Positions 2,325 through 30,394 of a stretch of 64,000 bases of DNA are shown piece after piece. Origin of the DNA: Thermoproteota archaeon (GTDB lineage Archaea; Thermoproteota; Thermoprotei; Thermofilales; B9-G17); assembly GCA_029258885.1 (NCBI GenBank), contig JAPDJW010000019.1, positions 1-64,000 on the forward strand, written 5' to 3'. Position numbers and translations under genes: made by a program. The notes under the pieces were generated by a model that did not search any database, had not been told where the DNA came from, and saw nothing but the letters and a program-made list of their open reading frames with translations. The number at the start of each line of letters is the position of its first letter. The first letter of the stretch is position 1.

Positions 2325-2329
2325 TGTAG

Positions 2330-2878
2330 GTGTCCGAGGAAAGGGTGGAGTACGTATTTACGTTTAGTGTTAAGAGGAGGAGTAGACCTAACCCCAATTA
2401 TGAGGGTATTCTGAGGACTCATAGGTTCTACATAAAGTACTACAGTCTCTTAAGCGGGCAGGATCCGGTCAAAGTTGTTGGTGATGAGGATAGCTGGTTG
2501 AAGATTGCTTTTCCAGTAAGGTTTACGGGGGCTGTGCTGAGTTTCGCTAGGGAGCTGGGCGGGAATGTGGTTGAGGTACGGAAGGTTAAGCCTCCTAGGG
2601 CTGATGCCTACTATGAGAGGCCCATTGTGGTGCTTCCGAATGAGATAGCTTTTCGGAGGCATCTTCTCTTTACTCTTACTGCTTCGACTTACAGGAAGCC
2701 TGAGAGGCTTAATACTTTGAGGAATCTCGTGCTCGCCTTAAACGCCAATTTTTTGAATATGCTTACTACGATAGCTCTGGATAGGTATTCTGAATTAAGG
2801 AATTCCTCGAATCCTGCGTGGCATTGGTATATGATGCGTGTGGGTAGGGCTGTGAAGGTGCTGTATAGGATAGACTAG
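2330..2878 (+). CDS. Small accessory protein of the restriction-like system (positional equivalent of DUF3780)
   Basis: 182-aa ORF 5 bp after the DUF499-like gene and 12 bp before the helicase. Family assignment is by position only. Confidence 0.5.
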   Translation: MSEERVEYVFTFSVKRRSRPNPNYEGILRTHRFYIKYYSLLSGQDPVKVVGDEDSWLKIAFPVRFTGAVLSFARELGGNVVEVRKVKPPRADAYYERPIVVLPNEIAFRRHLLFTLTASTYRKPERLNTLRNLVLALNANFLNMLTTIALDRYSELRNSSNPAWHWYMMRVGRAVKVLYRID

Positions 2879-2890
2879 TAAGGTGGTGGT

Positions 2891-5995: not shown

Positions 5996-6004
5996 GTTGG
6001 AGCT

Positions 6005-7252
6005 ATGAGGGTTTTTACTCAAGGTAAAACTAAGATAAGGATCTATGGAGGATTAGGTTCAATCGGCGGCAACTGCATCGTCGTCGAGTCGCCATCTACT
6101 AAGATCATGCTGGATCAAGGTGTAAACTTTACTCAGCTTAAGAGATTCTACGGCTTTTCAATACAGCCTGATAGTGTCGAGGAACTTAGGAGTATGAGGG
6201 TGCTACCTCCTAGGGAGGCCTATGACGGTATCGAGGGAATATACGTAACGCATCTCCACCTAGATCATCTAGGCAGCTTAAATGTACCGGGAGGAGTCCC
6301 TGCCTATCTGCCATCCAGGGAAATAGCGGAAGTCCTCTCTAGGTCATGGTGGTTCGGCTGGAAGCAACATCTGCTTCCGCAGACTTTATCTTTCCTAAAC
6401 TTTAAGGAAATAGAGGACAGCAGTAAAATAGAATACGCTAGAGTATCCCATAGCGCCTTTCCCTCCTATGCCTTTAGAGTGGATACTGAGGATACATTCA
6501 TACTCTATACTGGAGATCTTAGGTTAGCAGTACCACATAGCATGTTTAGTGATACGCTTGAAAACCTTAGAAAGCTTTCTGAGGACGGGGTTGACGTTCT
6601 TATTATGGAGGGTACTAACTTCGGCAGAAGGATGAACTACTTAACTCCAGCCCAGTTTAAAAACATGCTCGACGAGCTCCTCGAAAAATATGGTCGTAAG
6701 CTACTCTTCATCTCCACGCATCCATTAGATTTAGAGTCGACGTTAGCTCTCCTCGAGCTTCTCTGGAAATCCGGGTATACGCCAGTCTTTGAAAACCTGT
6801 ATTATGCTCAGCTACTCGATATAATGCTAAGCAAAATTAACTATGATGTAGAGAAGGATCTCCTATTTACACCACAATCATCTAAGATTAGGACTCTGGA
6901 GAACTTTGAGATAGCATTCCTAGAGGAACTTAAAGATGTGAAGAAGGCGGTCTTCGTCCCAATATATGCAGTTAAAAACCTAGAGACTGTAGCAAATTTC
7001 TCCGGCGAGAATACTTATGGCTTGCTTCACGTAACTGTAATAGGAGAACCTCTTAGTGAGGAGTGGATAATTGAGGAGCGAAAGATCGTTAATTGGCTTA
7101 AGCTGTTGGGGATCACAAGCTATAGAATACATTTAAGCGGCCACTATCACCCATACGAATTCGAAAAAATAATAGAAGCGATAAAACCCAAAAAGATAAT
7201 CCCGATACATACTACAGCACCAAAAACCATGCTATCTCTCTTTAAGAGCTGA
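6005..7252 (+). CDS. MBL-fold metallo-hydrolase, RNase J/beta-CASP-like
   Basis: GGLGSIGGNC, MLDQG, THLHLDH, VSHSA, YTGDLR and HLSGH motifs. Confidence 0.85.
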   Translation: MRVFTQGKTKIRIYGGLGSIGGNCIVVESPSTKIMLDQGVNFTQLKRFYGFSIQPDSVEELRSMRVLPPREAYDGIEGIYVTHLHLDHLGSLNVPGGVPAYLPSREIAEVLSRSWWFGWKQHLLPQTLSFLNFKEIEDSSKIEYARVSHSAFPSYAFRVDTEDTFILYTGDLRLAVPHSMFSDTLENLRKLSEDGVDVLIMEGTNFGRRMNYLTPAQFKNMLDELLEKYGRKLLFISTHPLDLESTLALLELLWKSGYTPVFENLYYAQLLDIMLSKINYDVEKDLLFTPQSSKIRTLENFEIAFLEELKDVKKAVFVPIYAVKNLETVANFSGENTYGLLHVTVIGEPLSEEWIIEERKIVNWLKLLGITSYRIHLSGHYHPYEFEKIIEAIKPKKIIPIHTTAPKTMLSLFKS

Positions 7253-7261
7253 TTAATAAGT

Positions 7262-8695
7262 TTAGGGGATTGTTTTACTGAAAAATTTTTTATCTATGCT
7301 TTCAGATAACCATTTTATTTGTTGCCTTATCATTATTGCGTATTCCTTTCGTACGGTTCTTATATGCATAACTCTTCTTCTTCCCAAGCTGTTTATATCA
7401 TGTAGGTAGGTCTTCAATTTTGCTTGATTGTTTCTGAAGTATTCCTTAAAAACATCCCAGTTGGCAATTATTATATTTGCATAATCCATAAAATCTGCAT
7501 AGTTTAGTAGGTCTTTCTCTGGCTCCCATCCATCTTCAATATCCATATTTTTTCTTTTTTCGCATTTTTTACGAACTTCACTGGGTATATTATCCCACCA
7601 TTTTTCTCCGTATTTTTTCTTGAGCTCCTTTCTTATTAATGTCCTTAGCTTAACTTCTAATCCAGCTATTTCAACGAAGAGTTCTGTTAGCTCCTTGATA
7701 TTCAATTTTTCCTTTGCTTTAACTTTTATTGGCATCTTTTCCTTCTTTATTAATATCTTAATGGGCTTCCCTACTTCTAATATATTATCTATCAGTGGTT
7801 TCAGCAAGCGTTTTTCCAAAAATATATTATACAAAGTGGTATTTTTTATTTCGAAAGGCTTATTTTCACTTAATATGCCAAAATAGGGAGACGTTATGTT
7901 TCTTTTATTTGCTTGATCTATTATTTGTTGTATATCTTCTTCTGTGAGGTCGTACTGCTGTAGCTTATTCCAGTATTGTTCCTTAATAGTATCCAAATCT
8001 AAATCGGAGTTTATTATATACGCGATTTCCTTTAATAGGAGGTAGATTTTAGCAATTTTCTTTTTCTCTTGGTCTAATCCTGTCTTGAAAGGAACTCCTT
8101 CTACAAGAAATGATTGTACTTCTGGGCATATTACGTAATTTAATTCTCTCAGCTCACCACCTCTTGTAGCCACGTAATAGAAAGTTTTTACACATAAGTT
8201 TTCTTTTACCAAGACATCTAATATTCTATTTCTAAGTATTTTGATGCGTGGATCTCTAAAGATTGGTTCTCTCCAGTCGTAGATGAACATTTCATCACCT
8301 ATATCAACAGGAAAGGTTAGTTTTCTGCTAAAGTAGTCAAATATTAGGAAACGTAGAGTCGTTTCAGGTATGTGGATCTTATGTTTTCTTAGAAAATCGT
8401 TGACATCTGTAAATTCTTTTAGTTTTTCTTTTACTAACATGGAGGCTAAATCTTTTCCCTTTTCTGTTGTTAGTAATAACTCATGTGAGTACCATTTATG
8501 CTCCAGTATTAGATCGTGTTCCTTTAGGATGTCTATTTCCTTGCTGTATTTTCTAAATTCAGATGTTAGAACTCCTTCTTCCCTTATATGTTGAGCTATA
8601 TAAATTTTCTTAAGTACTTCTAGAGCTTTATCATTTAAGTTAAGATTATTAAGTGATGTTTCTGTCATATCACTATTTATTAAACTCTTAGCCAT
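7262..8695 (-). CDS. Swt1-family HEPN domain protein (putative RNase toxin) with long N-terminal region
   Basis: C-terminal LEVKLRTLIR..LKKKYGEKWW...LLNYADFMDY..II..NW..F, with Rx4H motif RRRVMH. AT-rich. Confidence 0.75.
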   Translation of the reverse strand: MAKSLINSDMTETSLNNLNLNDKALEVLKKIYIAQHIREEGVLTSEFRKYSKEIDILKEHDLILEHKWYSHELLLTTEKGKDLASMLVKEKLKEFTDVNDFLRKHKIHIPETTLRFLIFDYFSRKLTFPVDIGDEMFIYDWREPIFRDPRIKILRNRILDVLVKENLCVKTFYYVATRGGELRELNYVICPEVQSFLVEGVPFKTGLDQEKKKIAKIYLLLKEIAYIINSDLDLDTIKEQYWNKLQQYDLTEEDIQQIIDQANKRNITSPYFGILSENKPFEIKNTTLYNIFLEKRLLKPLIDNILEVGKPIKILIKKEKMPIKVKAKEKLNIKELTELFVEIAGLEVKLRTLIRKELKKKYGEKWWDNIPSEVRKKCEKRKNMDIEDGWEPEKDLLNYADFMDYANIIIANWDVFKEYFRNNQAKLKTYLHDINSLGRRRVMHIRTVRKEYAIMIRQQIKWLSESIDKKFFSKTIP

Positions 8696-8889
8696 ATTAA
8701 CTTTAACTACTCTCTATTTTTTGCTTTGTATATTATTTCATAAAATAGCTTTAAGACCGTAATCTTGTTATGTATACGCAAGGATGATGGATCCACGATG
8801 GGGCTAAGCTTTTTATAGATTTTAGATATTAGTATATGCGAAAAACTAAAATTTTTCCATTCAAATATTAATATAGGTGTTGCTTTACG

Positions 8890-10464
8890 TTGGTACACGA
8901 CAGGTTTCCTAAACGTATAGAATATGCTTTAATAAAGTATATTGCTCAATTAAATAGTAGATTAGAGGCTGCATTGAAGTATTATTTCGACAAAGTGAAA
9001 GACCATGTTTTTTTAACAGAAGATTTCAGGTTAAACATAAGCGATTATCTTCCGCATGTATTGTTTCCTCTGCCACTTTTAGGAGCTTATTTATTTAATA
9101 TTGAGAAGTTATGCTTTGACGTTAAGTTGCTTAATCCCTTTAGGGAAGATATACGTATTATGTTTTCAAATAAGATGTTAGTTCCTGCTTTCTCACTCTC
9201 TATATCGTCCTTTACTACCTTACAGCGCTGGACTAGGGAACCTTTAAGAGATATACAGATAATCCCACCCTTAGGCGATAAACCGCTAGTAGTAAGGAAA
9301 GGTGATTATTCGCTTCTTAATTTTTATTACTTTAGATCCTTGGGTAAGCTGGAAATATCTAACCCGGAGTATTTAGACTTTATATTAAAGGATATTTTAA
9401 TTTTAGCGGCTTTTCCTTCTATGCCAACAATAAGAAATAAATTTGATTGTCTATTAAAATCATTGCCATTTCTTAGCATTTATGGGTCGGATGTGAGCGG
9501 TGTAGAGGCGCTAAGCGTTTCTCGATGTTTAATAAAATTTGATCGTGGGTCATTAGGAGAGGGATATTCTCAAAAAAGAGCTATTAAGAGCTTATTGTGG
9601 GGCACTCTGCCTGTATATAAGGTTAAAGGGATGGTATTGTCAAGTAGTCCATTTGGAGGAACCATTAGAAAGGAGATAATATATATTCCAGAATTCTATT
9701 ACACCAGAATCTTTGAAGAATGTTATGATTCCATACTGGTAGATTCGATTGTACTTTCCTTATTCAATATAAGAAAGAGAGATTTAATGCTTTTTAATAT
9801 CCTTGGAGTACCTCTTAATATTTTTCAATTTGAGAATAATTTAGTAATCCCAATTATACTAGACTACATAGTTGCCAATATGTGTTCCTCAAGATTTTTA
9901 GAAATGCCCGATGAACAGCCACAAATAAGTAGAATGCTTAAGGTTAATGTAGTAATTTCAGAGCAGGAAATAATTACAAGGCTAAATAATATTCTCAGAT
10001 GCTTGCAAATAAAGTCCCGTAAGTTTAACACTTCTCTAATATCCATTAAACTGTCACCTAGAAATATATTATTATCTAACATACTAAGTTACGCTTATGT
10101 TTATCTTCTCCCATTTTCGGACGAATTATCTATAAAAGTATTACATTGTGGGAAAAGTCTCTCTATATCCTGTTATTATCCTCATATCCTCTTATCCATA
10201 TTATCATTTGCCTTAGTTAAGGGGTTAGACTTTGAAACATATAGGAAATTAATGAAATGCATAGTTAAAATAGTTAAGGAAAATCCCAAAGTAGAAGATC
10301 CTCAAGTATTAATTATGGTTAAGGATAAGCTTAATGAAATATTAAAGGATGATGTACATATAGGTTATAAAGACATATGTCTTTTATTCAGAAATATCAT
10401 GCTGGCACATAAATTATATATGTGCAAACTAAAGTATTTTAAGTGGATATTAAAATACCAATAA
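8890..10464 (+). CDS. Uncharacterised 524-aa protein, first gene of the helicase operon
   Basis: Long AT-rich ORF (TTG start) ending 16 bp before the helicase. No motif recognised. Confidence 0.7.
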   Translation: MVHDRFPKRIEYALIKYIAQLNSRLEAALKYYFDKVKDHVFLTEDFRLNISDYLPHVLFPLPLLGAYLFNIEKLCFDVKLLNPFREDIRIMFSNKMLVPAFSLSISSFTTLQRWTREPLRDIQIIPPLGDKPLVVRKGDYSLLNFYYFRSLGKLEISNPEYLDFILKDILILAAFPSMPTIRNKFDCLLKSLPFLSIYGSDVSGVEALSVSRCLIKFDRGSLGEGYSQKRAIKSLLWGTLPVYKVKGMVLSSSPFGGTIRKEIIYIPEFYYTRIFEECYDSILVDSIVLSLFNIRKRDLMLFNILGVPLNIFQFENNLVIPIILDYIVANMCSSRFLEMPDEQPQISRMLKVNVVISEQEIITRLNNILRCLQIKSRKFNTSLISIKLSPRNILLSNILSYAYVYLLPFSDELSIKVLHCGKSLSISCYYPHILLSILSFALVKGLDFETYRKLMKCIVKIVKENPKVEDPQVLIMVKDKLNEILKDDVHIGYKDICLLFRNIMLAHKLYMCKLKYFKWILKYQ

Positions 10465-10480
10465 ATTCGAAGGGGATAAA

Positions 10481-13400
10481 TTGAATAGTAAACTATATGA
10501 TCAGGATGAGCTCATAATTGGTGCATATCAAGAATTATTTCTCAAAGAAATAGAGAAAGCGAGAAAACTACATAATGTATTCATATGCCATGAAGCTAAG
10601 GAGGTATTACGGTTAATAGAATCGTTCATTTCGGAGTTTAATAACTTAAAGGATAAGATTACTGCTGACGATATTTTTCGTGAATTAGTAAGAAGAGAAT
10701 TAATAGCTGTTTATCCTGATAGAAGAGTAAGAACAAGACATTTAGAATTGATACTAAGATCCATTTATTCCCGTCCATATCCTAACGCATTATCTACCCT
10801 TGAATATATCATACTAAAACCATATATTTCAGTATTGTCTTCTTTTGAGGAGCATACAGGAGAGGAATTATATGAGATAACTAAAAATTATTTAAAGCAA
10901 AAAGTGGATCAGGCATTAGCAGACGTTTTTTCGAGGATTCTAGCGATCGCTTTTATGAGAGGTATTGCAGAAAAAGAATCATTAAAAGATGGTATGTTAT
11001 CTGCATATCAGTACTCTAACCTTAACACTCTATTTAGATATATTGCTAACGACCTACCTTCTATTTCGCTACTAGCAGCTCCTACAGGAACTGGTAAAAC
11101 GTGGATTTTCATTCTATACGCTATAGCTAGAATACTGGAGGCTAAAGCAAGTGGTGAAATAAGTGGAGTAAAAGTCCTTATAATATATCCTCGAAAAGCG
11201 CTTGCACGCGACCAGGCCGAAAGAATACTAAAACTACTTCGTATCATTAACGAAGAACTCAAATGTAGAAATCTGGAAAGTTATAAAATAACTCTTGGTA
11301 TATGGGATAAAGATTCTCCATATTACTGGAAGGATGTTGAAGAAAAACGACAGAAAGGCATGGTTGAATTTAGGGGAATAAAGTGTCCTATATGTGGTAG
11401 GAAGTTGGTCTACGATATATCAGCAAAAGTTATAAGGTGTTCATCATGCAAAGGTAAATTCGATTATATAGGGGATGTAAGAGAATGGATTGTTGATACA
11501 GAGCCTGATATACTCATTACAAACTTTTGGGCTATAAACTATAGGCTCATTAGTAAACGTTTTAAGCGTTTGCTCGATGATTCTATTCGATGTATAATTA
11601 TAGATGAAGCACATGTGCTTAGAGATCTCACAGGAGCATTCGTATCTTATCTATTATGCAGAATTCTATTACGTCTAGCGATGCAATATAAGAAGCTATG
11701 TGAGAATTCTTCAGGTTCGTTGAAATTAGATCCTAAGGCTGAATATGATGCCCTTGAATGGATACGTGAGTACTTAAGAGCTAGAAACTTATCTATAATA
11801 CTCTCATCAGCTACAATCTCAACTGCACAAAAACTAAAGGAAAGATGTAAAGATGCGGAATTATTCGCAAAAAATGTTATTTATCCAAAAATTTATGAAA
11901 TCTTCACTAGTATCTGTAAAAGTAGAGGTTTCTCTCCTATAATATATCATGACTATGATGAAATCTACCAAAAACTTTATAGCGAGAAGCCGGAGCTCCA
12001 GAAATTACACAGAAAAATAAATATTGTGGTCATTATTGCTCCTCATCCATCAAGAGGTTTAGAAACAATAGCACAAACCGTAATGCTATGTAACCTTTTC
12101 TGGTCTAAAACGTTTAATCAGAAATTTCTTTTCTTTGTAAATAATAAAGAGGCAATAGAGCGTCTATATCATTTCATCCGTGATATAATAATAAGAGAAC
12201 GTGGAGAAATCTATGATCACGTTTTTCTCTCTGATAGAAATCCCGGAACAAATAGAAGCAACTACATATATAAATCATGGAAAAGTCATGAAAATGTGTT
12301 ATTAAGCAATAATTATATCTTAATCAAGGCTTTAGAAGATCCACTTTACTGGCTCTCGTTTACTTACATTTCATACTTAAGTAGTTTAATATCACAAAAT
12401 AGGAATTTAGATAAAATATTAATATCTCTGAACTCTAATCAGAATATCCACTTTAACAATCTATTAAATCTTGCAGAGGCTACGTGTAACGGTATATTTA
12501 GAAGGAATACCTCATACTTAGAGATTCATCATGCGGATCTGAATAAAGCACGACGTCAGAAAATAGAGGAAGAGCTTAAAAAGGGTAACTTGCTAGGAGT
12601 TCTTTGTACATCAACACTAGAGTTGGGAATAGATATCGACAATGTATCAACAATAATTCAGTATAAACCGCCGACAGCTGAGAGCTTTGTTCAAAGGCTT
12701 GGAAGGGCTGGTCGGAGACGAGAAACAATGTATATAGCAATAGGTTTCTTGCTTATAAGTAACTTTGATATATTATATCTCAACGAGGAATATTCGTCAA
12801 GAGAGCTATTTAACATTAGGCCAGCGTTGTTGCCTCACGATAATCATCGTATACGCGCAAATGCTATTTACTATGCTATGTTTGATCTTTTAGCATACTT
12901 TGGTCATAAGCTAAGCTACCGTAGGAGAATTAGAGATGCTGACAATATAAAAAATGAAATTCAAAGTATTTGTCATACGTTAACCAGGTACGAGAAAACC
13001 TTTAAATCAATCATAGCCAGCCTCTATGGTCTTTCGATAGAAGATGTTGAAAAAGAGTATGAAACATTTAAAAGCTATTTGCAGCTTTTGTATGCTAACA
13101 TAGAAAATATGAATATGGTACCCACATTTATTAAAAACATCATATATAATCTTTTGGGAAATATACAGTCTCTGAAGAATATATTGTCAAATATAATTCT
13201 TGACCTGCACTCAAGGGGGTTATTTAGTGAATCATCACAAAGGATAGCTCAGTTAACAATGAAACTAGATGATTTATGTGAAAAATTGTGTGAAATAGAT
13301 CTTTATTACGACGCATATCCGGATTATTTATTAAATCGTAAAAATACTACGTCAGCTAGCATTAAGGAATATAAACATATGCTAGAAGAAACGCTGAATG

Positions 13401-13567
13401 ATCTATTGAGTATAAAAATAGGCAAGTATGGTATTCTAAGTTTGAAAATCGAAAAGGCGGAGAATAAAATAAGAGAAATTATAGGTGATCTTAAGGCAGT
13501 AATTTATTTCTTGGAAACAGGACTTAATTATCTTTTTACGAATAATCTTAGGCGCATTTTGAGGTGA
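10481..13567 (+). CDS. SF2 DEAD/DEAH helicase with Zn-finger insert (DpdJ/DrmA/DruE-like N-terminal module)
   Basis: APTGTGKT, IYPRKALARDQ, CPICG..CSSC, IIDEAH, SSAT, HHADL, TSTLELGIDI and QRLGRAGR motifs all intact. Confidence 0.9.
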   Translation: MNSKLYDQDELIIGAYQELFLKEIEKARKLHNVFICHEAKEVLRLIESFISEFNNLKDKITADDIFRELVRRELIAVYPDRRVRTRHLELILRSIYSRPYPNALSTLEYIILKPYISVLSSFEEHTGEELYEITKNYLKQKVDQALADVFSRILAIAFMRGIAEKESLKDGMLSAYQYSNLNTLFRYIANDLPSISLLAAPTGTGKTWIFILYAIARILEAKASGEISGVKVLIIYPRKALARDQAERILKLLRIINEELKCRNLESYKITLGIWDKDSPYYWKDVEEKRQKGMVEFRGIKCPICGRKLVYDISAKVIRCSSCKGKFDYIGDVREWIVDTEPDILITNFWAINYRLISKRFKRLLDDSIRCIIIDEAHVLRDLTGAFVSYLLCRILLRLAMQYKKLCENSSGSLKLDPKAEYDALEWIREYLRARNLSIILSSATISTAQKLKERCKDAELFAKNVIYPKIYEIFTSICKSRGFSPIIYHDYDEIYQKLYSEKPELQKLHRKINIVVIIAPHPSRGLETIAQTVMLCNLFWSKTFNQKFLFFVNNKEAIERLYHFIRDIIIRERGEIYDHVFLSDRNPGTNRSNYIYKSWKSHENVLLSNNYILIKALEDPLYWLSFTYISYLSSLISQNRNLDKILISLNSNQNIHFNNLLNLAEATCNGIFRRNTSYLEIHHADLNKARRQKIEEELKKGNLLGVLCTSTLELGIDIDNVSTIIQYKPPTAESFVQRLGRAGRRRETMYIAIGFLLISNFDILYLNEEYSSRELFNIRPALLPHDNHRIRANAIYYAMFDLLAYFGHKLSYRRRIRDADNIKNEIQSICHTLTRYEKTFKSIIASLYGLSIEDVEKEYETFKSYLQLLYANIENMNMVPTFIKNIIYNLLGNIQSLKNILSNIILDLHSRGLFSESSQRIAQLTMKLDDLCEKLCEIDLYYDAYPDYLLNRKNTTSASIKEYKHMLEETLNDLLSIKIGKYGILSLKIEKAENKIREIIGDLKAVIYFLETGLNYLFTNNLRRILR

Positions 13568-13573
13568 ATTGTT

Positions 13574-16066
13574 ATGCAAAAAAGAGTTATTGAGTTATTT
13601 AGGTTACTTAAAGAGGGTGTATGCTTTAGGAGGCTTTCGGATCCACTACATATGGGTAGAAGTACAGTTCAAGAATGTAGACTTATAAAAAAGTACTCTG
13701 TGCACCCTGATGGACAGGAAGAAGGACCTAAATGGCCAGTAACAGACGTTTTATATACATGGCTTAGACCTTTAAATATCCGCCGACTAGAGATTCAGCA
13801 GCAAAGGCAATGGGGTATTCTACTTTCCCCATCTTATAGCCTCTATAGAGTCAGAAGGTTTGATCATAAAAGAAGGATAGTTGAAATAGAGCGGGTATGG
13901 GGATCGCGTATTTACATAGATTCCTTAGATTATCTTCCCTATAGTTGTTATCCCGATTCGTCATTTAGCTATGGGGAGAAATCGAATATCCGGCAGGCAT
14001 GCATCCCCGAATTTGTAACATATATTACTTTTAGTCTGCTTCCTGAAGCCGATAAACCTTTGCTATACATATGCGGTAGGAAGCGGGATCATGTACTAGA
14101 AGCATTGAATCTCGTATATATCTCAAGACCGATGGAGGAACTTGATAGTATACCAGTTGTATACTCATATGATTGTAGCTTTGTATGGATAGGCGTCACG
14201 TTAGAAGATTTACGTAGAATGGGTTTCAGAATACCTCCAGTAAACTATAAAATAGAGGAAATTACAAGAAAGGTTTCAAAGACTATAAGTTTTAACAGGA
14301 AGTATGCTTACGATGACCTACTAGAGAGCCAGAGTGTAAATAGGGCTATACGTTCTCATGCCGTAGTTAAAGTATACATTGATGCTCTAGATGTGAAATA
14401 TTCTTCATGGCGCCCTATATTGGATATTGAGGATCATGGTTTTTATGTTGGAATAGTGCCTAAAATATGTTTTAAGAAGGTACTTCTCGGATCACGCTTA
14501 AGAACAACCACCACAATGGCGTCTTCAACACCCATATATATTAACATGGGCACTTATCAGAGAGGACATGGGGGAGGAATAGGCGTTAGGATAGTTAATA
14601 GTGAAGGACTGGCTATACTTTTCGAAAAAGATAAATTTAGGAAGCTTATAGAAGGTATAATTCTTAGTAACATCAAACTATTAAAGACGCTGCTATTAAA
14701 ATACTTAATCTTAAGACATTGCTATGTAAAATACGTGGATTATTATGATTTTAATGCAATAATTGATTTTATTCTAGCCTTAATATTTAATGAAGATGTT
14801 GAACTTATCAAAAAATACTACGACATATTTCATGCTGGACATACAGATGAAATAATTTTTAACTTTAAGAAGATACGCTTAGATTATAATGATTTCATTA
14901 AGTATGCTACTAAAGTGGCACTTTATTCCCTAGCACAGGTATTAGCGAAAGTAATTATATCGCATGTACTCCATACGAGATTAGATAATTTCACATTATA
15001 TGTAAGTGAAGAATATAAAGTTAAAAAGGAAAATAGGGAGATTCAATGCAGCACCATAATGATCTTGGAAAATTCTCACGAGGGTCTTGGCTTCATAGAA
15101 CAGCTATATAAAATGGTTCGTACAAGTCCAGAACGGAATTTACTATCCCTTATAATAGATCCAGCTCTTCAGATGCTAGTGGATAGCAAGTCAGGAAAAG
15201 ATCTATGCTTACTATACCATGAGAGTATAAAGCAGAGAGATAGAAATCTAGTAGCTAGCTTATGTAGGAGCAGTCAAGAGCTAGATCAGATAAGAAGACA
15301 CCTACAATACTTAGTACATGAATGGAATAAGAACGTAAATACGTATTTTCCATCCGACTTCATGCGACTCCTATTATATCGCTATTTGGGCAGAGTCGAT
15401 CAAGACCTACGTCGAAAACTTAACATGGATGCGTTCCTTCGTAGTGCAATACCACAGATCTATAACGTTGAGGCACCTTTCTGCTGGGATAGTTGCCAAA
15501 GATGTGTAAGGCTAAAGAAAGCATACTTATTATCACCAATAGATCAAATATTTTACACTTCGAAGAGTCTGACAATAGGATTACTCAAAGCGTTATCAGA
15601 TATCCTTAAACCTGGTAAAAATTCATCAATAAGAACAGGCTGTGGACTAGGTCATAGTGTCTTAAACTTAATGAAGCATGCAAATAGTGAAATAAGAATA
15701 ATGAGCCCTTGGATCTCGCCGGACATAGTAAGGCAATTAATAAATTTAGCACTAGAAAAAGGATTGAAGATAAGGATAATAACACATCCGCCAAAAAGAG
15801 GAGAACCAAAACCTCACATACAAGCCATACAAATCCTAAAAAAGGCATCTAAAAGGTTAGATAAAATTAAGGTAAAATATGATGAGAAAGTACATGCAAA
15901 AGTAATAATAATAGATGATAAACTTCTTATAACAGGTTCAATGAACTTAACGAAAAGAGGAACGGAAATCAATATCGAAAGTATAACTGTATGCAGAAAT
16001 AAAGCAGAAATATACACTACTATTGCAGATTATGAAAAACTATGGATTAATTCTTTATCAGAATAA
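13574..16066 (+). CDS. DUF1998-like (MrfA/DrmB) Zn-binding protein fused to a C-terminal phospholipase D-family nuclease
   Basis: ILENSHEGLGFIEQL and CWDSCQRC; C-terminal SPWIS, HAKVIIID (single HKD) and TGSMNLT. Confidence 0.8.
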   Translation: MQKRVIELFRLLKEGVCFRRLSDPLHMGRSTVQECRLIKKYSVHPDGQEEGPKWPVTDVLYTWLRPLNIRRLEIQQQRQWGILLSPSYSLYRVRRFDHKRRIVEIERVWGSRIYIDSLDYLPYSCYPDSSFSYGEKSNIRQACIPEFVTYITFSLLPEADKPLLYICGRKRDHVLEALNLVYISRPMEELDSIPVVYSYDCSFVWIGVTLEDLRRMGFRIPPVNYKIEEITRKVSKTISFNRKYAYDDLLESQSVNRAIRSHAVVKVYIDALDVKYSSWRPILDIEDHGFYVGIVPKICFKKVLLGSRLRTTTTMASSTPIYINMGTYQRGHGGGIGVRIVNSEGLAILFEKDKFRKLIEGIILSNIKLLKTLLLKYLILRHCYVKYVDYYDFNAIIDFILALIFNEDVELIKKYYDIFHAGHTDEIIFNFKKIRLDYNDFIKYATKVALYSLAQVLAKVIISHVLHTRLDNFTLYVSEEYKVKKENREIQCSTIMILENSHEGLGFIEQLYKMVRTSPERNLLSLIIDPALQMLVDSKSGKDLCLLYHESIKQRDRNLVASLCRSSQELDQIRRHLQYLVHEWNKNVNTYFPSDFMRLLLYRYLGRVDQDLRRKLNMDAFLRSAIPQIYNVEAPFCWDSCQRCVRLKKAYLLSPIDQIFYTSKSLTIGLLKALSDILKPGKNSSIRTGCGLGHSVLNLMKHANSEIRIMSPWISPDIVRQLINLALEKGLKIRIITHPPKRGEPKPHIQAIQILKKASKRLDKIKVKYDEKVHAKVIIIDDKLLITGSMNLTKRGTEINIESITVCRNKAEIYTTIADYEKLWINSLSE

Positions 16067-16197
16067 TATAAGTAATAATATGTGCTATATGGGTAGGTAA
16101 TATGCGGGCTTGTTAAATTTCAGGCTATGCTTCATATAGTTCAATGGAATAATTGACGTTTTATGTAAGAATAGATATTGGGCGTGTTTGAGCGTTG

Positions 16198-16207
16198 TTT
16201 TTATATA
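16198..16207 (+). promoter_or_regulatory. Putative TATA box of the ATPase-nuclease operon
   Basis: TTTTTATATA about 30 bp upstream of ATG 16236, with a GGTGA SD-like motif just before the start. Confidence 0.45.
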
Positions 16208-16235
16208 TGTTTTTGGTATATTTTAGTGGTGAATT

Positions 16236-17702
16236 ATGGTTTCTGGTTTGTTGAGGTATGGTTTGAGGTTTAATCCTTTTCCTAGGGGTGAGGCTGAGCA
16301 GTATATTGATACTCCTGAGAGGTTGAATATTTTCCTGTTTGATATGGAGAGGAGGAGGCTTTGTGAATACGCTTCTGAGGTGTCGAATTCAAGTGTGAGT
16401 TTTGTAGTTACGGGTGGGTGGGGTACTGGTAAGTCTCTTTTTCTGCTGTATTTCTATAGGTTGTTGAGGGAGAAGTTTGGATCTGATAATGTTGTTTTGG
16501 TGTATGTTAAGGCTCCTAGTAGCTCGTATGATATTCTTGCTAGGATATATGACTTCTTTGCTGGGAAGGGTCTTATTAAGAGGTCTAGAAGGGAGATGTC
16601 GAGGGATGATCTTCTGGGGGTTATTAGGGATGTTTCCGCTAGGCTTGTTGATGAGGGTAGAGTTGTCTATATAGCTGTTGATCAGCTTGAGAGTGTACTG
16701 GAGTGTCTTTTGTCTTCTTCGGAGAGTGGGGAAGTTGGTAGATTAGCTGAGACTTTGCGTGGAGGTCTTTCGGCGATGTTGGGTAGAAGATATGCGTTAG
16801 GTGTTTCTGCTATTGATGTATATTGGAGGCTTTTCTCTGAAGGTTGGGAGTCCATTAGGGGTCTTGATATAATTACTTTGCGTCCTCTCCTTAGGGAGGA
16901 GGCGGCTAGGTTTATTGAAAGCTACCTTGATATTGCACGTGATAATGAATATATTAATGGTGTACCGGAACTTAGGGAGGCTATTAAAAATAATCCTCTT
17001 TATCCATTTACAATGGAGGCTGTTAATGAGCTTTGGGCTTATAGTCGTGGTGTTGAGAGATACTTGTGTAGCTGGGCTAGTAAGGCCTTGGATTTAGTCG
17101 TGGAGCAGAATATTCCCGAGATTGGTGTTGATCTCATTAGGATTGCTATTGATCAGAGATATGAGTTTTACATAACTGCTGGTAACGAGGTCTTTAGGTA
17201 TCATTATACGCGTGTTGTTCCATTGGTTAGGGAGATTATGGCCTGGTTTTCGGAGAACGTTCCGAGTGCTAATATCGTGTACTTGGGGCAGGTGGATAAT
17301 GTACTGCTTATCTCTGTTAAAGATAAGCCTGTGGCTATAATTAACATCTTTGGCTTCTTTAAATCTGACCATGTGAAGTATATTAAGGAGATTATTGATA
17401 ACGGTGTAAAGATTGGAAACCGTATATTTAAGCCTGAAAAGGTTCTTATTCTCTTGTGGGTGTCTAAACGTCTATTGCCTAGTAAGACTATGGATGTGGA
17501 GGCTAGAATGTTTTGGTATGAAAATCGAGATAAAGTTTTAATTAAAAGAATTAATCGAGACGATGTTTTAGCCTGGGGTCGTCTTGCTGCATACTATGCT
17601 ATAATAACTGGTTGTCTACCCGATTATTTATCCTCTGATAAGGAGAGAGAGGAGGAGAAGCGTGAAATCCTTAGGATCTTAGGTATTTCCGATATTATGT
17701 AG
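16236..17702 (+). CDS. P-loop/AAA+ ATPase with atypical Walker B
   Basis: N-terminal FNPFP, Walker A GGWGTGKS, Walker B IAVDQLE, and lid region YPFT.EA..LW..S.G..R. Confidence 0.8.
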   Translation: MVSGLLRYGLRFNPFPRGEAEQYIDTPERLNIFLFDMERRRLCEYASEVSNSSVSFVVTGGWGTGKSLFLLYFYRLLREKFGSDNVVLVYVKAPSSSYDILARIYDFFAGKGLIKRSRREMSRDDLLGVIRDVSARLVDEGRVVYIAVDQLESVLECLLSSSESGEVGRLAETLRGGLSAMLGRRYALGVSAIDVYWRLFSEGWESIRGLDIITLRPLLREEAARFIESYLDIARDNEYINGVPELREAIKNNPLYPFTMEAVNELWAYSRGVERYLCSWASKALDLVVEQNIPEIGVDLIRIAIDQRYEFYITAGNEVFRYHYTRVVPLVREIMAWFSENVPSANIVYLGQVDNVLLISVKDKPVAIINIFGFFKSDHVKYIKEIIDNGVKIGNRIFKPEKVLILLWVSKRLLPSKTMDVEARMFWYENRDKVLIKRINRDDVLAWGRLAAYYAIITGCLPDYLSSDKEREEEKREILRILGISDIM

Positions 17703-17720
17703 CTAGAGGGTTATATCGTC

Positions 17721-18617
17721 ATGGTTGGAAGGGAGGTGATTGAGTCTATTTACCATAGATTCAGGGAGCAAGCAGTTATTTTGGGTTATGAGTCACTGAA
17801 TTTATCTAGGTTTGGTGGCGAGCCAGACGCTATAGTAATCTCCCGTTATGGGGATGGGCTTAAGCTTGATAATTCAAAGTTTGAGTATCGGGCAATAGTT
17901 TTCGAGTTTAAAACTTCTGTTAATTACAGGGATTTGGCTCAACTTATTCGCTATAAGACTGTTTATGGTCCAACTTTTTTAGTTGTTACACGCGAAAACA
18001 GTGTTCCATATCTCTTCAGGCAAATATTATCTAGTGAGGGTATAGGTCTGATTTATTTCCGTAACGGTCAGCTTGCTTTAGAGCTTGAGGCTTGTAATGA
18101 TCCCTCTAGGGAGGTAATGCTTGGAGAGATCATGTTCTGGTATGTTGTATCTATGATAACTCATCTCATAAACTTATATTCGTCTGATAGGCGGGGATTT
18201 ACGAGAATATACGATGCTTTGAGACGTAAGATGCTTTCCTCCAGCGAAATAGAGCTGGTTAAACTATATGGGGAATTGAAAAATATGCTTTGTTGCCTGA
18301 AACCTTCCTTAGAGGTGCTGGGTGTCTGCCTTAAGGTAACTGAGGATGTCCTGAAGATATTTGATCAAGAATGTCTACCTGAAAATTTCATGGAGCTAGT
18401 TAGATACATCAATGGTAAGCTAAATATGGTGCATGTTATTAGGGAGTTGAGGGATCTTGTTGGTGATCCCGCTAAGCTTTGGGTTAGAGCTTCGAGCGGT
18501 CTCAAGTATTATTTAGGCCTTAAGCACCATCCTATAAATGCTAATAGTCTGGCTAGGTATATTGATAGCATCTATAGGAGGTTATCTATTCTAGATGAAT
18601 GTGGGCTTGAAAAATGA
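17721..18617 (+). CDS. PD-(D/E)XK superfamily endonuclease-like protein
   Basis: GEPDAIV...VFEFKT...QLIRY (PD, ExK and QxxxY motifs) in the N-terminal half; 18 bp after the ATPase. Confidence 0.7.
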   Translation: MVGREVIESIYHRFREQAVILGYESLNLSRFGGEPDAIVISRYGDGLKLDNSKFEYRAIVFEFKTSVNYRDLAQLIRYKTVYGPTFLVVTRENSVPYLFRQILSSEGIGLIYFRNGQLALELEACNDPSREVMLGEIMFWYVVSMITHLINLYSSDRRGFTRIYDALRRKMLSSSEIELVKLYGELKNMLCCLKPSLEVLGVCLKVTEDVLKIFDQECLPENFMELVRYINGKLNMVHVIRELRDLVGDPAKLWVRASSGLKYYLGLKHHPINANSLARYIDSIYRRLSILDECGLEK

Positions 18618-19496
18618 AATTGTTAATGGCTCGATTTTACCGTTTGGACTAAGCAACCAGCTTACTTTTACTTTTCCATAGTATGCTGGCGTATCTAAGC
18701 TCCTCAGATATTCCCTAAATTCGTTCCATGTGAGCTTTCTATAGTTGAGTCTTTCAAGTTTTTTATTGAGAATTTCGAAGAGCCCTTCGGTTCCCCATAT
18801 TTCCTTATTTCCTACTGCTGCTATATACCCGTATGGTGTGCCCTGCTTTAGGTGCCATCCTTTGTTTTGGCTTATTTCAATATATGTTTCCTCTAGCAAC
18901 CTGTAGAGTGTTTTAAGTTCTGGTACTTTTGTGAGCTTCTTGTACAGTTTTTCGTAGGCGTCGGGTTTTACGTTTTTTACTTTCTGGAGACTCTGCCTGT
19001 ATCCGATGATTATTCTTCTGACCGTTAGACCTAATATTTCCGCCAGTTCTGCCAGTTCTATCGGTACTACATTTGGATGTAGAAATAGAAGGTATGGGTA
19101 TACATTTAATATACCTCTTCCTCTAGATCTCTTATAGGGCTTCCATATAACTCTCGAGAGTTCTATTGAATGCTTCAGCTCTTGTGGGTTTTCTAGGTTT
19201 TCCGGATATTTCCATTTTATTATGCTTAGTATCGCGTATGTTCTATCAGTTTTCCTTCTAGCGGTATTTAATGTGCTTAATATCACTAGAATATCGTTTT
19301 TGGATGCATTCATCCATGCTTTTACTGTCTGAGGAGAGGGAGGAACTCCCCATAGATGGATGCATGAATATGAGTCTATCAAATTGTCGGGAACTAGGCC
19401 TATTATTTTCTCTATGGTTTCTCTGTCTATTCCCTCAACTATTGATCTATGTACGTTCTCGAAGCCGCCTCGTGATATATAAATATCTTTCTGCAT
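18591..19496 (-). CDS. Hypothetical protein with EVE/PUA-like N-terminal domain
   Basis: IHLWGVPP....AWMNASKNDILVI resembles the EVE-type WG..W..(G)D pattern. C-terminal half unrecognised. Confidence 0.45.
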   Translation of the reverse strand: MQKDIYISRGGFENVHRSIVEGIDRETIEKIIGLVPDNLIDSYSCIHLWGVPPSPQTVKAWMNASKNDILVILSTLNTARRKTDRTYAILSIIKWKYPENLENPQELKHSIELSRVIWKPYKRSRGRGILNVYPYLLFLHPNVVPIELAELAEILGLTVRRIIIGYRQSLQKVKNVKPDAYEKLYKKLTKVPELKTLYRLLEETYIEISQNKGWHLKQGTPYGYIAAVGNKEIWGTEGLFEILNKKLERLNYRKLTWNEFREYLRSLDTPAYYGKVKVSWLLSPNGKIEPLTISFFKPTFI

Positions 19497-19549
19497 TCTG
19501 TTTCATTTGGTATAAAGCTTATTAACATTTAAATTTATATTATTTTACA

Positions 19550-20863
19550 ATGCCAACTTTCTCAGATAAATGTTTGGACGTGTTTAAGTTTAAGCTTAGG
19601 TATTTTGGTTCTAAGCCTAGGGTATTTGAATATATTTCGAGATATTCGCAGGCTAATGATGTTGTTTTTGATCCATTTGCTGGAATGGGAACTATTACTG
19701 TTCAGGCCCTTGCGATGGAAAGGAGGGCTATATACAATGATTTGAATCCTGTCGCATATTTTGCATTTAAGACTATTGTTGAGGCGTCTTCTAGCGATCT
19801 TTGTTTTCGTGATGTTATTAGGGCTATGGGGGATGTTTTACGCTGTTTGGTTGCTACTGTCAGGGATCGACGAGAAGGGCTTACTAAGATTAATGTGGAG
19901 GATCTTTACTTGGTGAACGATATTCCAGCTAGGTTCTTTGTGTGGAATGGTTCTGAGATAGAATATGCGGTGCTTGTAGATGGGACTATTGTGAGAAGTT
20001 CTATGGGAGATTTTACTTGTAGTTTTGAGCCACTACACTATAGTCTCGCTAAGCTTTACTATGAATCTGGGGTGCCGTTCTATACTAGGAGATCTGTTGA
20101 CGATTTAGCTGAATTGTTTAGCAGGAGAAATTTCATAGCTCTAAAGGCTTTATATGAAGCTATTGAGAGGAAGAGCGAAGGTTTAGTTAGGGACTTATTG
20201 AAAGTTGCCTTTCTCTATTCGCTCTATAAATGTAGTCGTATGCAGCATTTAAGCGGCGGTAGCTGGCCTGTGCCGAAGTATTGGGTGCCTAGGAGACATA
20301 TCGAGTATAATCCTCTTATTGCCTTCAGGGAGAGCGTTAAAAGGATATTGAATGTTGTTAAATCGTTGAGGAGATATTTAGGTAAAGTATCTATAGGTGA
20401 TCTAACAGCTCTGCTTAGAGGGGAGGCCGACCTAAATATCATCAATCGTGATGCTAGATATCTCGATTTTCTTCCTGATGCTTCCGTGGATTATATAATT
20501 ACCGATCCACCCATGGTTGATGAGGTTCAATATCTTGAGTTAAGCTATTTCTATGCCGTTTGGCTTGGTTTAGATATGCCTTTTTCAAAGGAGTTTATAG
20601 TTAATCCTAAGCGTGGGCAGGATTTCGAATACTATATGCGATGTTTTCGATGTTTTATATCGGATGCGTATAGGGTTTTAAAGGATGACGGATTTTTAAC
20701 GTTAATAATTCATGATGTTAAAGGATTATACCGTATTATCCTCGATATTGCCCGTGAACATGGATTTAAACTAGTGGGGATTGATACTAAGGTAAGATTT
20801 AGAGGCATGAATGCGAGGCTTAGCATGGATAGAGAGCTTTACATCACCTTCGGTAAGCATTAG
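19550..20863 (+). CDS. DNA amino-methyltransferase (N6-A/N4-C), motif I before motif IV; catalytic motif reads DPPM
   Basis: RYFGSK, FDPFAGMGT, and YIITDPPMVDEVQYLELS (codons ACC GAT CCA CCC ATG). Confidence 0.85.
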   Translation: MPTFSDKCLDVFKFKLRYFGSKPRVFEYISRYSQANDVVFDPFAGMGTITVQALAMERRAIYNDLNPVAYFAFKTIVEASSSDLCFRDVIRAMGDVLRCLVATVRDRREGLTKINVEDLYLVNDIPARFFVWNGSEIEYAVLVDGTIVRSSMGDFTCSFEPLHYSLAKLYYESGVPFYTRRSVDDLAELFSRRNFIALKALYEAIERKSEGLVRDLLKVAFLYSLYKCSRMQHLSGGSWPVPKYWVPRRHIEYNPLIAFRESVKRILNVVKSLRRYLGKVSIGDLTALLRGEADLNIINRDARYLDFLPDASVDYIITDPPMVDEVQYLELSYFYAVWLGLDMPFSKEFIVNPKRGQDFEYYMRCFRCFISDAYRVLKDDGFLTLIIHDVKGLYRIILDIAREHGFKLVGIDTKVRFRGMNARLSMDRELYITFGKH

Positions 20864-21120: not shown

Positions 21121-21879
21121 GTGAGGGTTAGGGTTGGTGGTAGGGTTTTTGAGGTTTGTAGGGAGGATGTGTTTAAGGCTGTTAGGGGTGTTAAGCCTGA
21201 GCCTTTGTCTGGTAGGAGGAAGTATTATGTTGAGATTGATGGGAGGAGGTATCCTATTAAGCAGGTTGTTGGTCTGCTGCTTGGTTTGCCTAGGGTGGCT
21301 TTTACGGCTATGGAAGCTTATAGGGTTCTTACGAGGCTTGGTTTTGAGGTGAAGTCGCGGGAGGATGTTAAGGTTTCCGGTGAGGTCTTGGCTGGCGAGT
21401 TGGTGGAGTGGATTTTTGATGAGTTAAGTAGGGTGTTTTCGTCTCATGATGGGCTTGAGGTTTTTGTTGTTCATAGGGCTAAGTTTGAGGGCTGGGTTAA
21501 GGTTGAGCTTGCCCGTGTTCTTGGGAGGCGTTTTAGGGATGTGGTTCCGGAGGTGGATAATATTGATCTTGTTGCTGATGGCTGGGCTATTGAGATAAAG
21601 ACTGTGAATACTAACTATAGTTTTCCCGGTGTGCTTGTGAAGCATAGGCCTATAACGAAGAATATTATGGATGTTGTGGGGGATATAAGGAAGCTTAAGG
21701 CTAAGGCTGGATATAGGTGTAGGGCTGTGTTTTTCGTGGTGTTTCCGCTGCCGGATAGGGTTATGAATCAGTGGCGTATTCATCTTAGCAAGATAAGTAG
21801 GGAGTTAAAGCATATGTATTCACGTAAATTTAAGTTTAAAAACGGTGTGCCGGGAGTAATGTACTTGGGACTAATATGA
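21121..21879 (+). CDS. Two-domain protein: SCO5918-like N-terminal domain plus PD-(D/E)XK nuclease-like domain
   Basis: VKPEP..YYVEIDGRRYPIKQV..FTA.EA.R.L..LGF, then FEGWVKVE..IDLV....AIEIKT. Confidence 0.6.
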   Translation: MRVRVGGRVFEVCREDVFKAVRGVKPEPLSGRRKYYVEIDGRRYPIKQVVGLLLGLPRVAFTAMEAYRVLTRLGFEVKSREDVKVSGEVLAGELVEWIFDELSRVFSSHDGLEVFVVHRAKFEGWVKVELARVLGRRFRDVVPEVDNIDLVADGWAIEIKTVNTNYSFPGVLVKHRPITKNIMDVVGDIRKLKAKAGYRCRAVFFVVFPLPDRVMNQWRIHLSKISRELKHMYSRKFKFKNGVPGVMYLGLI

Positions 21880-22405: not shown

Positions 22406-22961
22406 CTAGCAAGCTCCCTTGAACAAATATTCTTTTAGCGTGTTTAGGGCTTCTCTGCGTGTTAGTGTGCCGTACCTAGAAAGGTATAGGAAATCTAGTA
22501 GGGTTTTTTGAGGTCTGAATATATTAGCTCGTCTCTTTTAATAAGGCCGAACTCCGCCATCCCCTGCTTAATTTTTACGAGTTTTACTTTTTCACCTACT
22601 ATTTTTATGATTTTAGGTCTGAAGAGGGAGTAGCTTACTATGAAGATTACGTCATAGTGCTCGTGGGTTACCCCATTTAGCCTTAATGCGGTATAGAGGC
22701 CGAAGTACCATTTGTCCCCAACTTGTTCATACCTGGCGATAAAATCCTTAGAGGATTCAAGCTCTTCCTTAATTTGAACTCCTCGATAGTCTTAACATAG
22801 TAGAGGCCTCTTAGTATTCTGATCACATATCCATATCTTATAATGTGGTTCATGAAGTAGTCGGGATTTACTTTAAACCTCTCACATAAGTCAGCTATTT
22901 CAACCCTAGTTATAACCTTGTCTCCATGCCTTGATAACAGATATCTAGTTACGGCTTTCAT
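22406..22961 (-). pseudogene. Frameshifted AbiEi-like (type IV TA) antitoxin
   Basis: N-terminal wHTH (VITRVEI...IRILRGLYYV). After an apparent 1-nt deletion near 22711-22722 the next frame reads WYFGLYTALRLNGVTHE...IYSDLKKPLLDFLY to a TAG at 22406-22408. Confidence 0.75.
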
Positions 22962-23046
22962 GTAGATAGTTATATAACAACCGTCAACTTTTTTAACGCT
23001 TGTTATATAACTAACGGATTTGCGAAATTTTCTCTAATGCTAACAC

Positions 23047-30350: not shown

Positions 30351-30394
30351 GGTTAAAATACGTCTTCAGCATACTAATATATAGGGATTATTCT

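Follow-up and report, generated by a model that had tools for sequence, protein, structure and literature searches.

A putative defense locus in a Thermoproteota archaeon joins two separable modules around one amino-DNA methyltransferase

Organization of the locus

Here, we examined seven adjacent genes at positions 8890-20863 of a 64,000-nucleotide stretch of DNA (hereafter the window) from a Thermoproteota archaeon of a hot environment (assembly GCA_029258885.1, contig JAPDJW010000019.1, positions 1 to 64,000 of the forward strand), which an initial annotation had put forward as a single undescribed defense system related to DISARM and Dpd. All seven open reading frames (ORFs) proved to be uninterrupted at the coordinates it gave (7/7), and its domain calls hold for six of them, with the remaining one, a PD-(D/E)XK nuclease, having a sequence motif as its sole support. 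Rather than a fixed seven-gene machine, however, the locus is two separable modules joined around one methylase. The first of these (module 1, or arm 1; 8890-16066, + strand) is made up of a lead protein X, a helicase (HEL), and a fusion of DUF1998 and phospholipase D (PLD) domains, and is written X-HEL-PLD. The second (module 2, or module B; 16236-19496) consists of an ATPase and a putative nuclease on the + strand and a reader protein on the - strand, and is written ATP-NUC-RDR. Related loci are denoted by L-numbers and the methylase (methyltransferase) gene by MT.

The arm 1 genes are tightly packed, with gaps of 16 bp between X and the helicase and 6 bp between the helicase and the PLD fusion. 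A gap of 169 bp then leads to the ATPase gene, which is followed after 18 bp by the nuclease gene. The nuclease and reader genes are convergent with a 27-bp overlap, and the reader and methylase genes are divergent across 53 bp. The GC content is 0.32-0.35 in X, the helicase, the PLD fusion, and a HEPN gene upstream of them, 0.39-0.41 with a strong GC skew from the ATPase through the methylase, and 0.43-0.47 in the flanking genes.

The methylase itself (19550-20863, + strand; 437 aa) is an amino-DNA methyltransferase of the N6_N4 family (N6_N4_Mtase), in which motif I (DPFAGMG) precedes motif IV (DPPM) by about 270 residues. In DPPM, the Met is common to the whole methylase clade, this position being F or H in other clades.

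Helicase and DUF1998-PLD fusion

The helicase gene (10481-13567, + strand) encodes a YprA-family superfamily 2 helicase that resembles DrmA and DpdJ, matches DEAD, ResIII, and Helicase_C, and carries no DUF1998 canopy. Its best models were for the DpdJ N-terminus (8.9e-37 in PADLOC and 8.6e-34 in NCBIfam), followed by those for Lhr-like helicases, BrxH, DruE, and DrmA, with the PADLOC DrmA models being matched partially at 1.6e-18 and 7e-16. The GTGKT, DEAH, and QRxGRxGR motifs are all present, and a zinc ribbon (residues 299-324) is inserted in RecA1. By sequence, its relatives in the protein data bank (PDB) are Lhr and MrfA/YprA, and it shares 48-57% identity with the helicases of related cassettes elsewhere, but 24% with the type found in L013 and L035. 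Neither Pfam nor a motif check revealed DUF1998 in the helicase ORF, and the earlier suggestion that the helicase is split from DUF1998 is thus borne out.

The next gene (13574-16066, + strand) encodes a protein that, judging from its predicted fold and its motifs, joins a DrmB-like CON-DUF1998 module to a single-HKD PLD domain of the Nuc/Zucchini type. The PLD domain is clearly recognizable (PLDc_2 at 1.1e-20 and the DrmC model at 4.5e-15), has an intact HxK..D..GSxN motif in which H774 and K776 are invariant, and matches the structures of Nuc, NucT, and Zucchini at Z ~15 (Nuc, Z 15.5). For the DUF1998 part, the Pfam MZB (DUF1998) score falls under the threshold (E=0.15), and since this family is detected in just one of nine fusion proteins, the call cannot stand on Pfam. 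Moreover, no PADLOC DrmB model matches the fusion, and its profile matched PLD proteins alone among PDB sequences. In the AlphaFold model, the pLDDT confidence score is 66 overall and 75-90 over residues 340-680, while the first 340 residues are β-rich and poorly modeled (pLDDT <50 in long stretches). Here, residues 258-675 match residues 557-749 of MrfA (6znp_A; Z 13.2) and residues 252-619 of DrmB (7s9v_B; Z 10.5 with 247 residues aligned), these two proteins being the sole non-PLD fold matches of the model. A cluster of four cysteines (C545, C637, C641, and C644) is invariant in nine homologs, distant ones included. The C-terminal DpdJ models also match residues 438-604 (4.7e-4 in PADLOC and 1.5e-3 in NCBIfam), hhalign aligns the CxDGCxRC zinc motif with that of housekeeping MZB helicases (E 2e-4), and the relative in L111 matches Pfam MZB at 7e-4.

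Because of the DpdJ matches, the zinc-motif alignment, the invariant Cys4 cluster, and the fold match, we read the product as a DrmB::DrmC-like fusion, a reading that the predicted model supports, and the DUF1998-PLD fusion named in the initial annotation stands despite the poor Pfam score. In all nine aligned homologs (9/9), the PLD domain forms one protein with DUF1998. Only seven close homologs were found among 5.8 billion proteins, and in every assessable case the fusion gene follows the helicase gene. Within the phylum, DUF1998-PLD fusions occur in about 5-7 of 400 sampled genomes. No description of a DrmB-DrmC fusion system was found in the literature searched.

Lead protein X and the four-gene operon

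Protein X (8890-10464, + strand; 524 aa) is the family-specific first gene of a compact, DISARM-like operon. It has no match in Pfam, PADLOC, or NCBIfam, and the protein Atlas returned nothing usable (best score 0.80, with recognition below the mark). The family is small, with only 7 representatives among 1.84 billion proteins, and X is 35-47% identical to the gene lying between the methylase and helicase genes in L001, L004, and L006. A more common arrangement, X2-HEL-PLD-MT, starts with a gene of ~500 aa, which we call X2. A first comparison of X and X2 with narrow profiles was weak (6%), but with broader profiles hhalign gave a probability of 88% (E 3e-6) over 354 collinear columns, as against 0.1% for the reversed control. 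On these profile alignments, X and X2 are remote homologs, and the conserved unit that follows from this homology is a four-gene operon. Hence X, which had been called an orphan, is instead the lead subunit of this operon. The operon was seen in dozens of loci from archaeal metagenomes and spans Thermoproteota, Bathyarchaeia, a metagenome-assembled genome (MAG) of Asgard archaea (Jordarchaeales), and Desulfurococcaceae; it is absent from PADLOC as a system, and we did not find it in the literature searched.

Two further candidates for an equivalent of X were rejected at an hhalign probability of 0.1% each, namely a gene of 559 aa that follows the methylase in L013 and an upstream gene of 502 aa in L035. 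Separately, in L037 (3647-8430, from a MAG labeled Woesearchaeota), X reads through in frame into the start of the helicase (~210 residues), the remainder of which is in another frame; this reflects either a frameshift or an assembly error.

ATPase, nuclease, and reader

Module B begins with a P-loop ATPase (16236-17702, + strand) of the AAA_22/KAP/Orc-like kind, with a Walker A motif of GTGK66S and a Walker B motif of D149-Q-L-E152. It matches AAA_22, KAP, and AAA_16, though only KAP_NTPase (20.4 bits) reaches the Pfam cut-off. Its nearest Atlas clusters, which we treat as a lead only, are archaeal AAA_22, Orc1-like (0.94), and BrxC/BrxD-like, and there is a match to SspC of PADLOC at 1.6e-3. 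Only 4 homologs were found in 5.8 billion proteins, and 400 genomes of the phylum gave weak matches alone.

The second gene (17721-18617, + strand) has no match to a hidden Markov model (HMM) and no fold support. Its P35-D36...E62-x-K64...Q74xxRYK motif, however, is invariant in 4 homologs, and a remote sister family (hhalign probability 93%) has D...ExK...GQAK, such that the product is putatively a PD-(D/E)XK nuclease.

The third gene (18591-19496, - strand) encodes a free-standing reader that couples an EVE/YTH-like PUA domain to an Orc/Cdc6-type winged helix. Its model is of good quality (pLDDT 86) and comprises two domains. The closest match of the N-terminal domain is to the YTH-like domain of McrB from T. 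gammatolerans (6p0g_A; Z 14.2, root-mean-square deviation (rmsd) 3.0 over 157 residues), ahead of the PH1033 EVE protein (Z 11.8) and ASCH (Z 8.9), and the C-terminal domain matches an Orc/Cdc6-type winged helix (Z 8.7). Among the module B proteins, the reader is the most conserved (mean column identity 68%). The family profiles of the nuclease and reader gave chance-level matches alone against PDB sequences, and a pattern scan did not find the reader family in the GTDB species representatives. Bell et al. 2020 (PMC7641849) offered no lead on this setting, as it names neither DISARM nor Dpd, and also not winged/wHTH, Crenarchaeota, or KAP.

Distribution of the modules around the methylase

A methylase-seeded scan of metagenomes gave 80 loci, which with nine known ones made 89, and these were dereplicated to 45 methylase clusters at 90% identity. 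Foremost by number was X2-HEL-PLD-MT (15 clusters), with HEL-PLD-MT without X in 5 clusters (one of which, L143, also has a remote variant of the ATPase-nuclease pair, termed B') and MT-X-HEL-PLD in 4. A helicase with an unrelated gene of ~745 aa and a methylase was found in 3 clusters. B or B' accompanied only the methylase in 3 clusters (a fourth, L164/L175, clustered with L169 among the composites), 3 clusters were scored as composite (one being the merged L169 and L175), and the contig was cut in the remaining 12. Here, the claim that the seven genes form one conserved system fails on both sides, as the arm 1 genes recur with the methylase, but with no ATPase trio, in 24 or more dereplicated loci, while the trio also occurs with the methylase alone (L015 and L164/L175, and as B' in L146 and L129). 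The sub-blocks do co-occur, though in only three lineages, with both arms flanking one methylase in the window, L013/L017, and L143/L189.

The MT-X-HEL-PLD loci (L001, L004, L006, L021 with L018, and L037) have no ATPase trio, and their surroundings are unrelated, including for example a short prokaryotic Argonaute (pAgo) system or an MmeI-type restriction-modification (R-M) system. The X, helicase, and PLD proteins of the window are 35-61% identical to members of these cassettes, and its gene order is retained as X-HEL-PLD...MT with three genes interposed. Of a different make-up are L153 (4217-11098), L161, L168, and their relatives, which contain a longer helicase (~1150-1250 aa), a ~745-aa protein without a PLD or Pfam domain, and a methylase. 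In the cultured haloarchaeon Halosimplex marinum XH63 (L190; NZ_JBLKNY010000004.1), we also observed a related helicase and DUF1998-PLD fusion pair at 24-31% identity. It lies between a gene of 585 aa before it and one of 851 aa after it, the latter in place of the methylase family.

Module B is rare, and the methylase family is adjacent in every assessable B or B' locus. When seeded with the ATPase, the search gave L013, L017, and L015, each with an adjacent member of this family. L013 and L017 are ordered as helicase, PLD, ATPase, nuclease, reader (on the - strand), and methylase, while in L015 the methylase lies upstream of the ATPase, with the nuclease and reader (- strand) after it. All three retain the overlapping, tail-to-tail layout of the nuclease and reader genes, but only L013 and L017 share with the window the head-to-head placement of reader and methylase. 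When seeded with the methylase, B was found in L164/L175 and B' in L146, L129, and L143/L189. The B' variant is remotely related (the ATPase being 27% identical to that of the window, with hhalign probabilities of 93% for the nuclease and 97% for the reader), and it adjoins the methylase family in L146 and L129 and is just downstream of HEL-PLD-MT in L143/L189. No helicase or PLD gene lies within about 10 kb of B and its methylase in L015 and L175.

The fold of the reader raises the prospect of module B being a Type IV system, split and McrBC-like, that is directed against foreign modified DNA, with its linkage to the methylase incidental or merely self-protective. In keeping with this, the McrB domain that it best matches binds 5-methylcytosine, the logic of a reader, an NTPase, and a PD-(D/E)XK protein is shared, with the ATPase and nuclease genes resembling an McrB/McrC pair, and GmrSD is located beside module B in L015. 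Unlike McrBC, however, module B places three functions on three proteins, its NTPase has AAA_22, KAP_NTPase, and AAA_16 matches only and is not of the McrB-type AAA+ GTPase (AAA_5) kind, and, besides the constant adjacency of the methylase family, the reader and methylase genes have their 53-bp divergent region in common. We consider a Type IV system quite improbable on this balance.

Only slightly less improbable, in our estimation, is that the EVE/YTH-winged-helix protein is a methylation-sensing transcription controller of the methylase, comparable to a C protein, and not an effector subunit. The C-terminal winged helix and the high conservation of the reader would agree with such a role, as would the head-to-head arrangement with the methylase gene in the window, L013, and L017. 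Nonetheless, L015 lacks that arrangement, its methylase being upstream of the ATPase, and in L164/L175 the reader gene is co-directional with the ATPase and nuclease genes and distal to the methylase.

Segment replacement and module exchange

The window and L013 share their flanks, namely the SNF2 helicase of a DUF499 system (74% protein identity) and a metallo-β-lactamase (MBL) gene (64%), and by sequence comparison they are orthologous islands. Across the locus itself, the B genes and methylase of the two are 30-44% identical (the window B genes being slightly closer to those of L015), while the helicase and PLD proteins of L013, like those of L017, are only 24% identical to their window counterparts. 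The DNA homology between the window and L013 (72%) stops at 7221 and resumes at 16259, and these breakpoints coincide with the GC step. At a locus that is otherwise orthologous, a low-GC block (7253-16235; GC 0.32-0.35) that holds the HEPN gene, X, the helicase, and the PLD fusion has therefore taken the place of a distantly related helicase/PLD pair. In the methylase tree, moreover, the window protein groups with those of L035, L013, and L017 (support 100/100), apart from the methylases of the MT-X-HEL-PLD cassettes. As the window methylase is thus of another clade than the methylases of its helicase/PLD relatives, the locus is a recombinant mosaic.

An exchange of modules is visible as well on the methylase side. 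The methylase genes of L169 and L175/L164 are 94-95% identical in DNA and 92% in protein, and when L169 (5946-7103) is compared with L175 (9406-10563), the similarity ends near the methylase 5' end. Upstream of it, L169 has the helicase-PLD pair and L175 has the ATPase, nuclease, and reader on the other strand. These two loci amount to a natural experiment, the same methylase with two restriction modules, through which the way that DISARM-like systems read self becomes testable. Similarly, L035 has a helicase and PLD of the L013 type, with its PLD gene directly adjoining the methylase gene, and it is exactly between these two genes that the three B genes sit in L013/L017.

Such a history also invites the view that two unrelated systems came to lie side by side by defense-island accretion, so that arm 1 arrived without its methylase and is methylation-independent or inert, and the resident methylase serves arm 2 (module B) only. 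The steps in composition (0.33, 0.40, and 0.45), the 169-bp gap with its separate transcription units, and the finding that arm 1 relatives all have their own methylase of another clade fit this explanation, as do the self-sufficiency of B and its methylase in L015 and L175 and the defense-island character of the region (with an Hma-like system and HEPN, AbiEi, and SCO5918-like genes). Against it, the cassette that was replaced, as retained in L013/L017, is also a helicase/PLD-fusion pair, which is a rare type given its frequency in the phylum; there is a third, independent composite in L143/L189; a methylase of the window clade serves HEL-PLD directly in L035; and all three arm 1 genes retain their catalytic motifs. 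We regard accretion of this kind as doubtful, though a serious contender.

Comparison with known systems

The affinity to DISARM and Dpd that had been proposed for the locus, without a full-coverage match to an existing model, is supported; the PADLOC and NCBIfam matches are partial and none is to DrmB. DISARM represents the YprA branch in which the helicase is consistently split from the OB-CON-DUF1998 part, and class 1 DrmA has an EVE-like N-terminal domain (PMC12458937; its supplement text has no Thermoproteota entries). As in DISARM (DrmAB structure 7S9V), a YprA-family helicase is encoded in the window apart from the DUF1998 canopy, a PLD nuclease comes directly after the DUF1998 module, a DNA methylase is linked, and an EVE-like reader is in the locus. 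DrmB is also the best multi-domain fold match outside the PLD proteins. However, the DrmB- and DrmC-like parts are in one polypeptide here, whereas DrmC of DISARM is a stand-alone gene after drmB. It usually has an N-terminal 4-helix bundle. The methylase differs too, being a small (~430 aa), motif-I-first N6_N4 enzyme that is neither PglX-like DrmMI nor the C5 methylase DrmMII. Moreover, nothing in DISARM corresponds by sequence to X, and the reader stands as a protein of its own, associated with a different ATPase-nuclease pair. The DISARM classes are defined by DrmD with DrmMI or by DrmE with DrmMII, and neither DrmD nor DrmE is linked to the cassette here. A match to DrmD and HmaA does come from the SNF2 gene (2891-5995), yet this gene is part of the DUF499 system and is not present in the other cassettes.

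With Dpd, the likeness lies in the helicase, for which DpdJ is the best HMM (over the N-terminal 22-395 of about 1480 positions), in the zinc module within RecA1, a trait of Dpd helicases (PMC12458937), and in the PLD domain, which matches DpdK. In contrast, DpdJ is unsplit and has lost the Cys4 cluster, while here the parts are split over two genes and the cluster is kept, and the scores fall far under the NCBIfam cut-offs (116.5 versus 800 bits for DpdJ and 55 versus 100 bits). None of the 7-deazaguanine genes (dpdA-C and queCDE) was among the Pfam and NCBIfam matches of the ORFs scanned over 1-32 kb, a set that excludes those shorter than about 100 aa as well as two others, at 29160-29522 (120 aa) and 30347-30955 (202 aa). 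Within this scope, a methylase indeed stands where Dpd has its 7-deazaguanine genes.

For module B, the nearest description is that of predicted gene neighborhoods with an Orc/Cdc6 ATPase, a restriction endonuclease (REase)-ASCH protein, and a winged helix-turn-helix (Krishnan, Burroughs & Aravind, NAR 2024, PMC10853773). The parts correspond, that is, an Orc/AAA_22-like ATPase, an REase-type nuclease, a PUA-like reader of modified bases, and a winged helix. Differing from these neighborhoods, the reader in module B is fused to the winged helix and not to the REase, is EVE/YTH-like rather than ASCH (as the Z scores of 14.2 and 8.9 indicate), and has a single rather than a triple winged helix, and the linkage to the methylase is constant. 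The match of the ATPase to the Orc/Cdc6 clade is weak, with AAA_22 and AAA_16 below their cut-offs.

Set against these systems, what is new is the ATPase-nuclease-reader module as a partner of a methylase, the composite loci, and the natural swap of modules on one methylase allele. Behind a locus that resembles one seven-gene system, the true conserved units can now be defined, and among them is a recurrent archaeal relative of DISARM and Dpd that current defense-system models miss.

Proposed mechanism

We propose, with a probability of about 60%, that the locus is a recombinant defense locus built around one amino-DNA methyltransferase that is combined with two separable restriction modules. 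In this best-supported picture, the methylase is the shared hub of both modules. The data show what domains the proteins have, that the modules recur and can be separated, that they have a methylase family in common, and that a cassette was replaced in the window, while a defense function, the dependence of both arms on one mark, the ligand of the reader, and any physical contact between the arms are all points that we infer. By analogy with DrmAB and MrfA, the helicase of arm 1 and the separately encoded CON-DUF1998 canopy would form a translocase, and the fused single-HKD PLD domain would have to dimerize to cut, with DNA that bears the mark of the methylase being spared. Arm 2 would be a second, independently mobile restriction module that travels with the same family of methylases. 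The methyl mark (N6-methyladenine or N4-methylcytosine) is most likely what its reader senses, and the constant linkage of arm 2 to the methylase leads us to favor a reader of the host's own mark. Through this sensing, the reader may gate either the ATPase-nuclease pair or the divergent methylase promoter. As such, the EVE/YTH-winged-helix protein, which stands free next to an amino-methylase, is a candidate for a reader of the host's own mark in defense. The methyl self-marking with two restriction arms suggested in the initial annotation therefore holds insofar as each arm partners the same methylase family, while the dependence of both on a shared mark is plausible.

Several points weigh against this proposal. 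The nuclease call comes from a motif alone, the OB fold expected within the N-terminal 340 residues of the fusion is not supported by the poor model of that region, and a self-mark reader coupled to a nuclease calls for an inhibitory logic that has no tested precedent here. The methylases of the X-HEL-PLD clade to which the window cassette belongs are only 34% identical to the resident one, and compatibility between mark and nuclease is thus an assumption. The islands of the window and of L013/L017 are orthologs of each other, which leaves about two or three composites that are truly independent, and many of the loci were gathered by methylase similarity, which biases toward methylase linkage. 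Furthermore, most HEL-PLD-MT loci are without B, and for this reason arm 1 does not need B.

More tentatively still, we raise the possibility that thermophilic and other archaea have a plug-and-play form of immunity centered on a methylase, in which a given methylase allele could be paired with either of two interchangeable modules, the DISARM-like helicase/PLD set or the Orc-like ATPase/PD-(D/E)XK set with its free-standing EVE/YTH-winged-helix reader. Composite loci would then operate both arms from one mark, and the reader, as a sensor of self, would veto cutting.

Neighboring genes

Upstream of the locus (3-7252), the window contains a DUF499 protein truncated at the start of the contig, a gene of 182 aa, and the SNF2 helicase, which has a NOV_C nuclease-like tail and matches the PADLOC models for HmaA (1.9e-60) and DrmD (3.6e-57). 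The MBL gene, which is β-CASP/RNase J-like, starts 9 bp after the SNF2 gene, and it is this pair that is kept in L013 at the identities given above. The DUF1156 methylase of the DUF499 system is outside the window.

The HEPN gene (7262-8695, - strand) encodes a protein of 477 aa that carries a Swt1-like HEPN domain at its C-terminus (PADLOC candidate PDC-M34B, 5e-20). It is absent from all related loci, and its GC content (0.32) is the same as that of the imported X-helicase-PLD block, with which it may have arrived.

Downstream of the methylase, at 21121-21879, is a gene for a protein of 252 aa that matches the SCO5918 family over its first 82 residues (at 3.8e-12 in NCBIfam, under the cut-off), and it adjoins the methylase in no related locus. 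Next, an AbiEi-like antitoxin (22498-23033, - strand; PADLOC AbiEi 2.3e-31) is seemingly split over two overlapping frames when compared with its 223-aa homolog in L037, and is possibly frameshifted. Further downstream of the island, the genes at 25459-26544 and 31034-32143 encode two paralogs of the archaeal ATPase_2 kind, both bearing an MCM_C-type winged helix.

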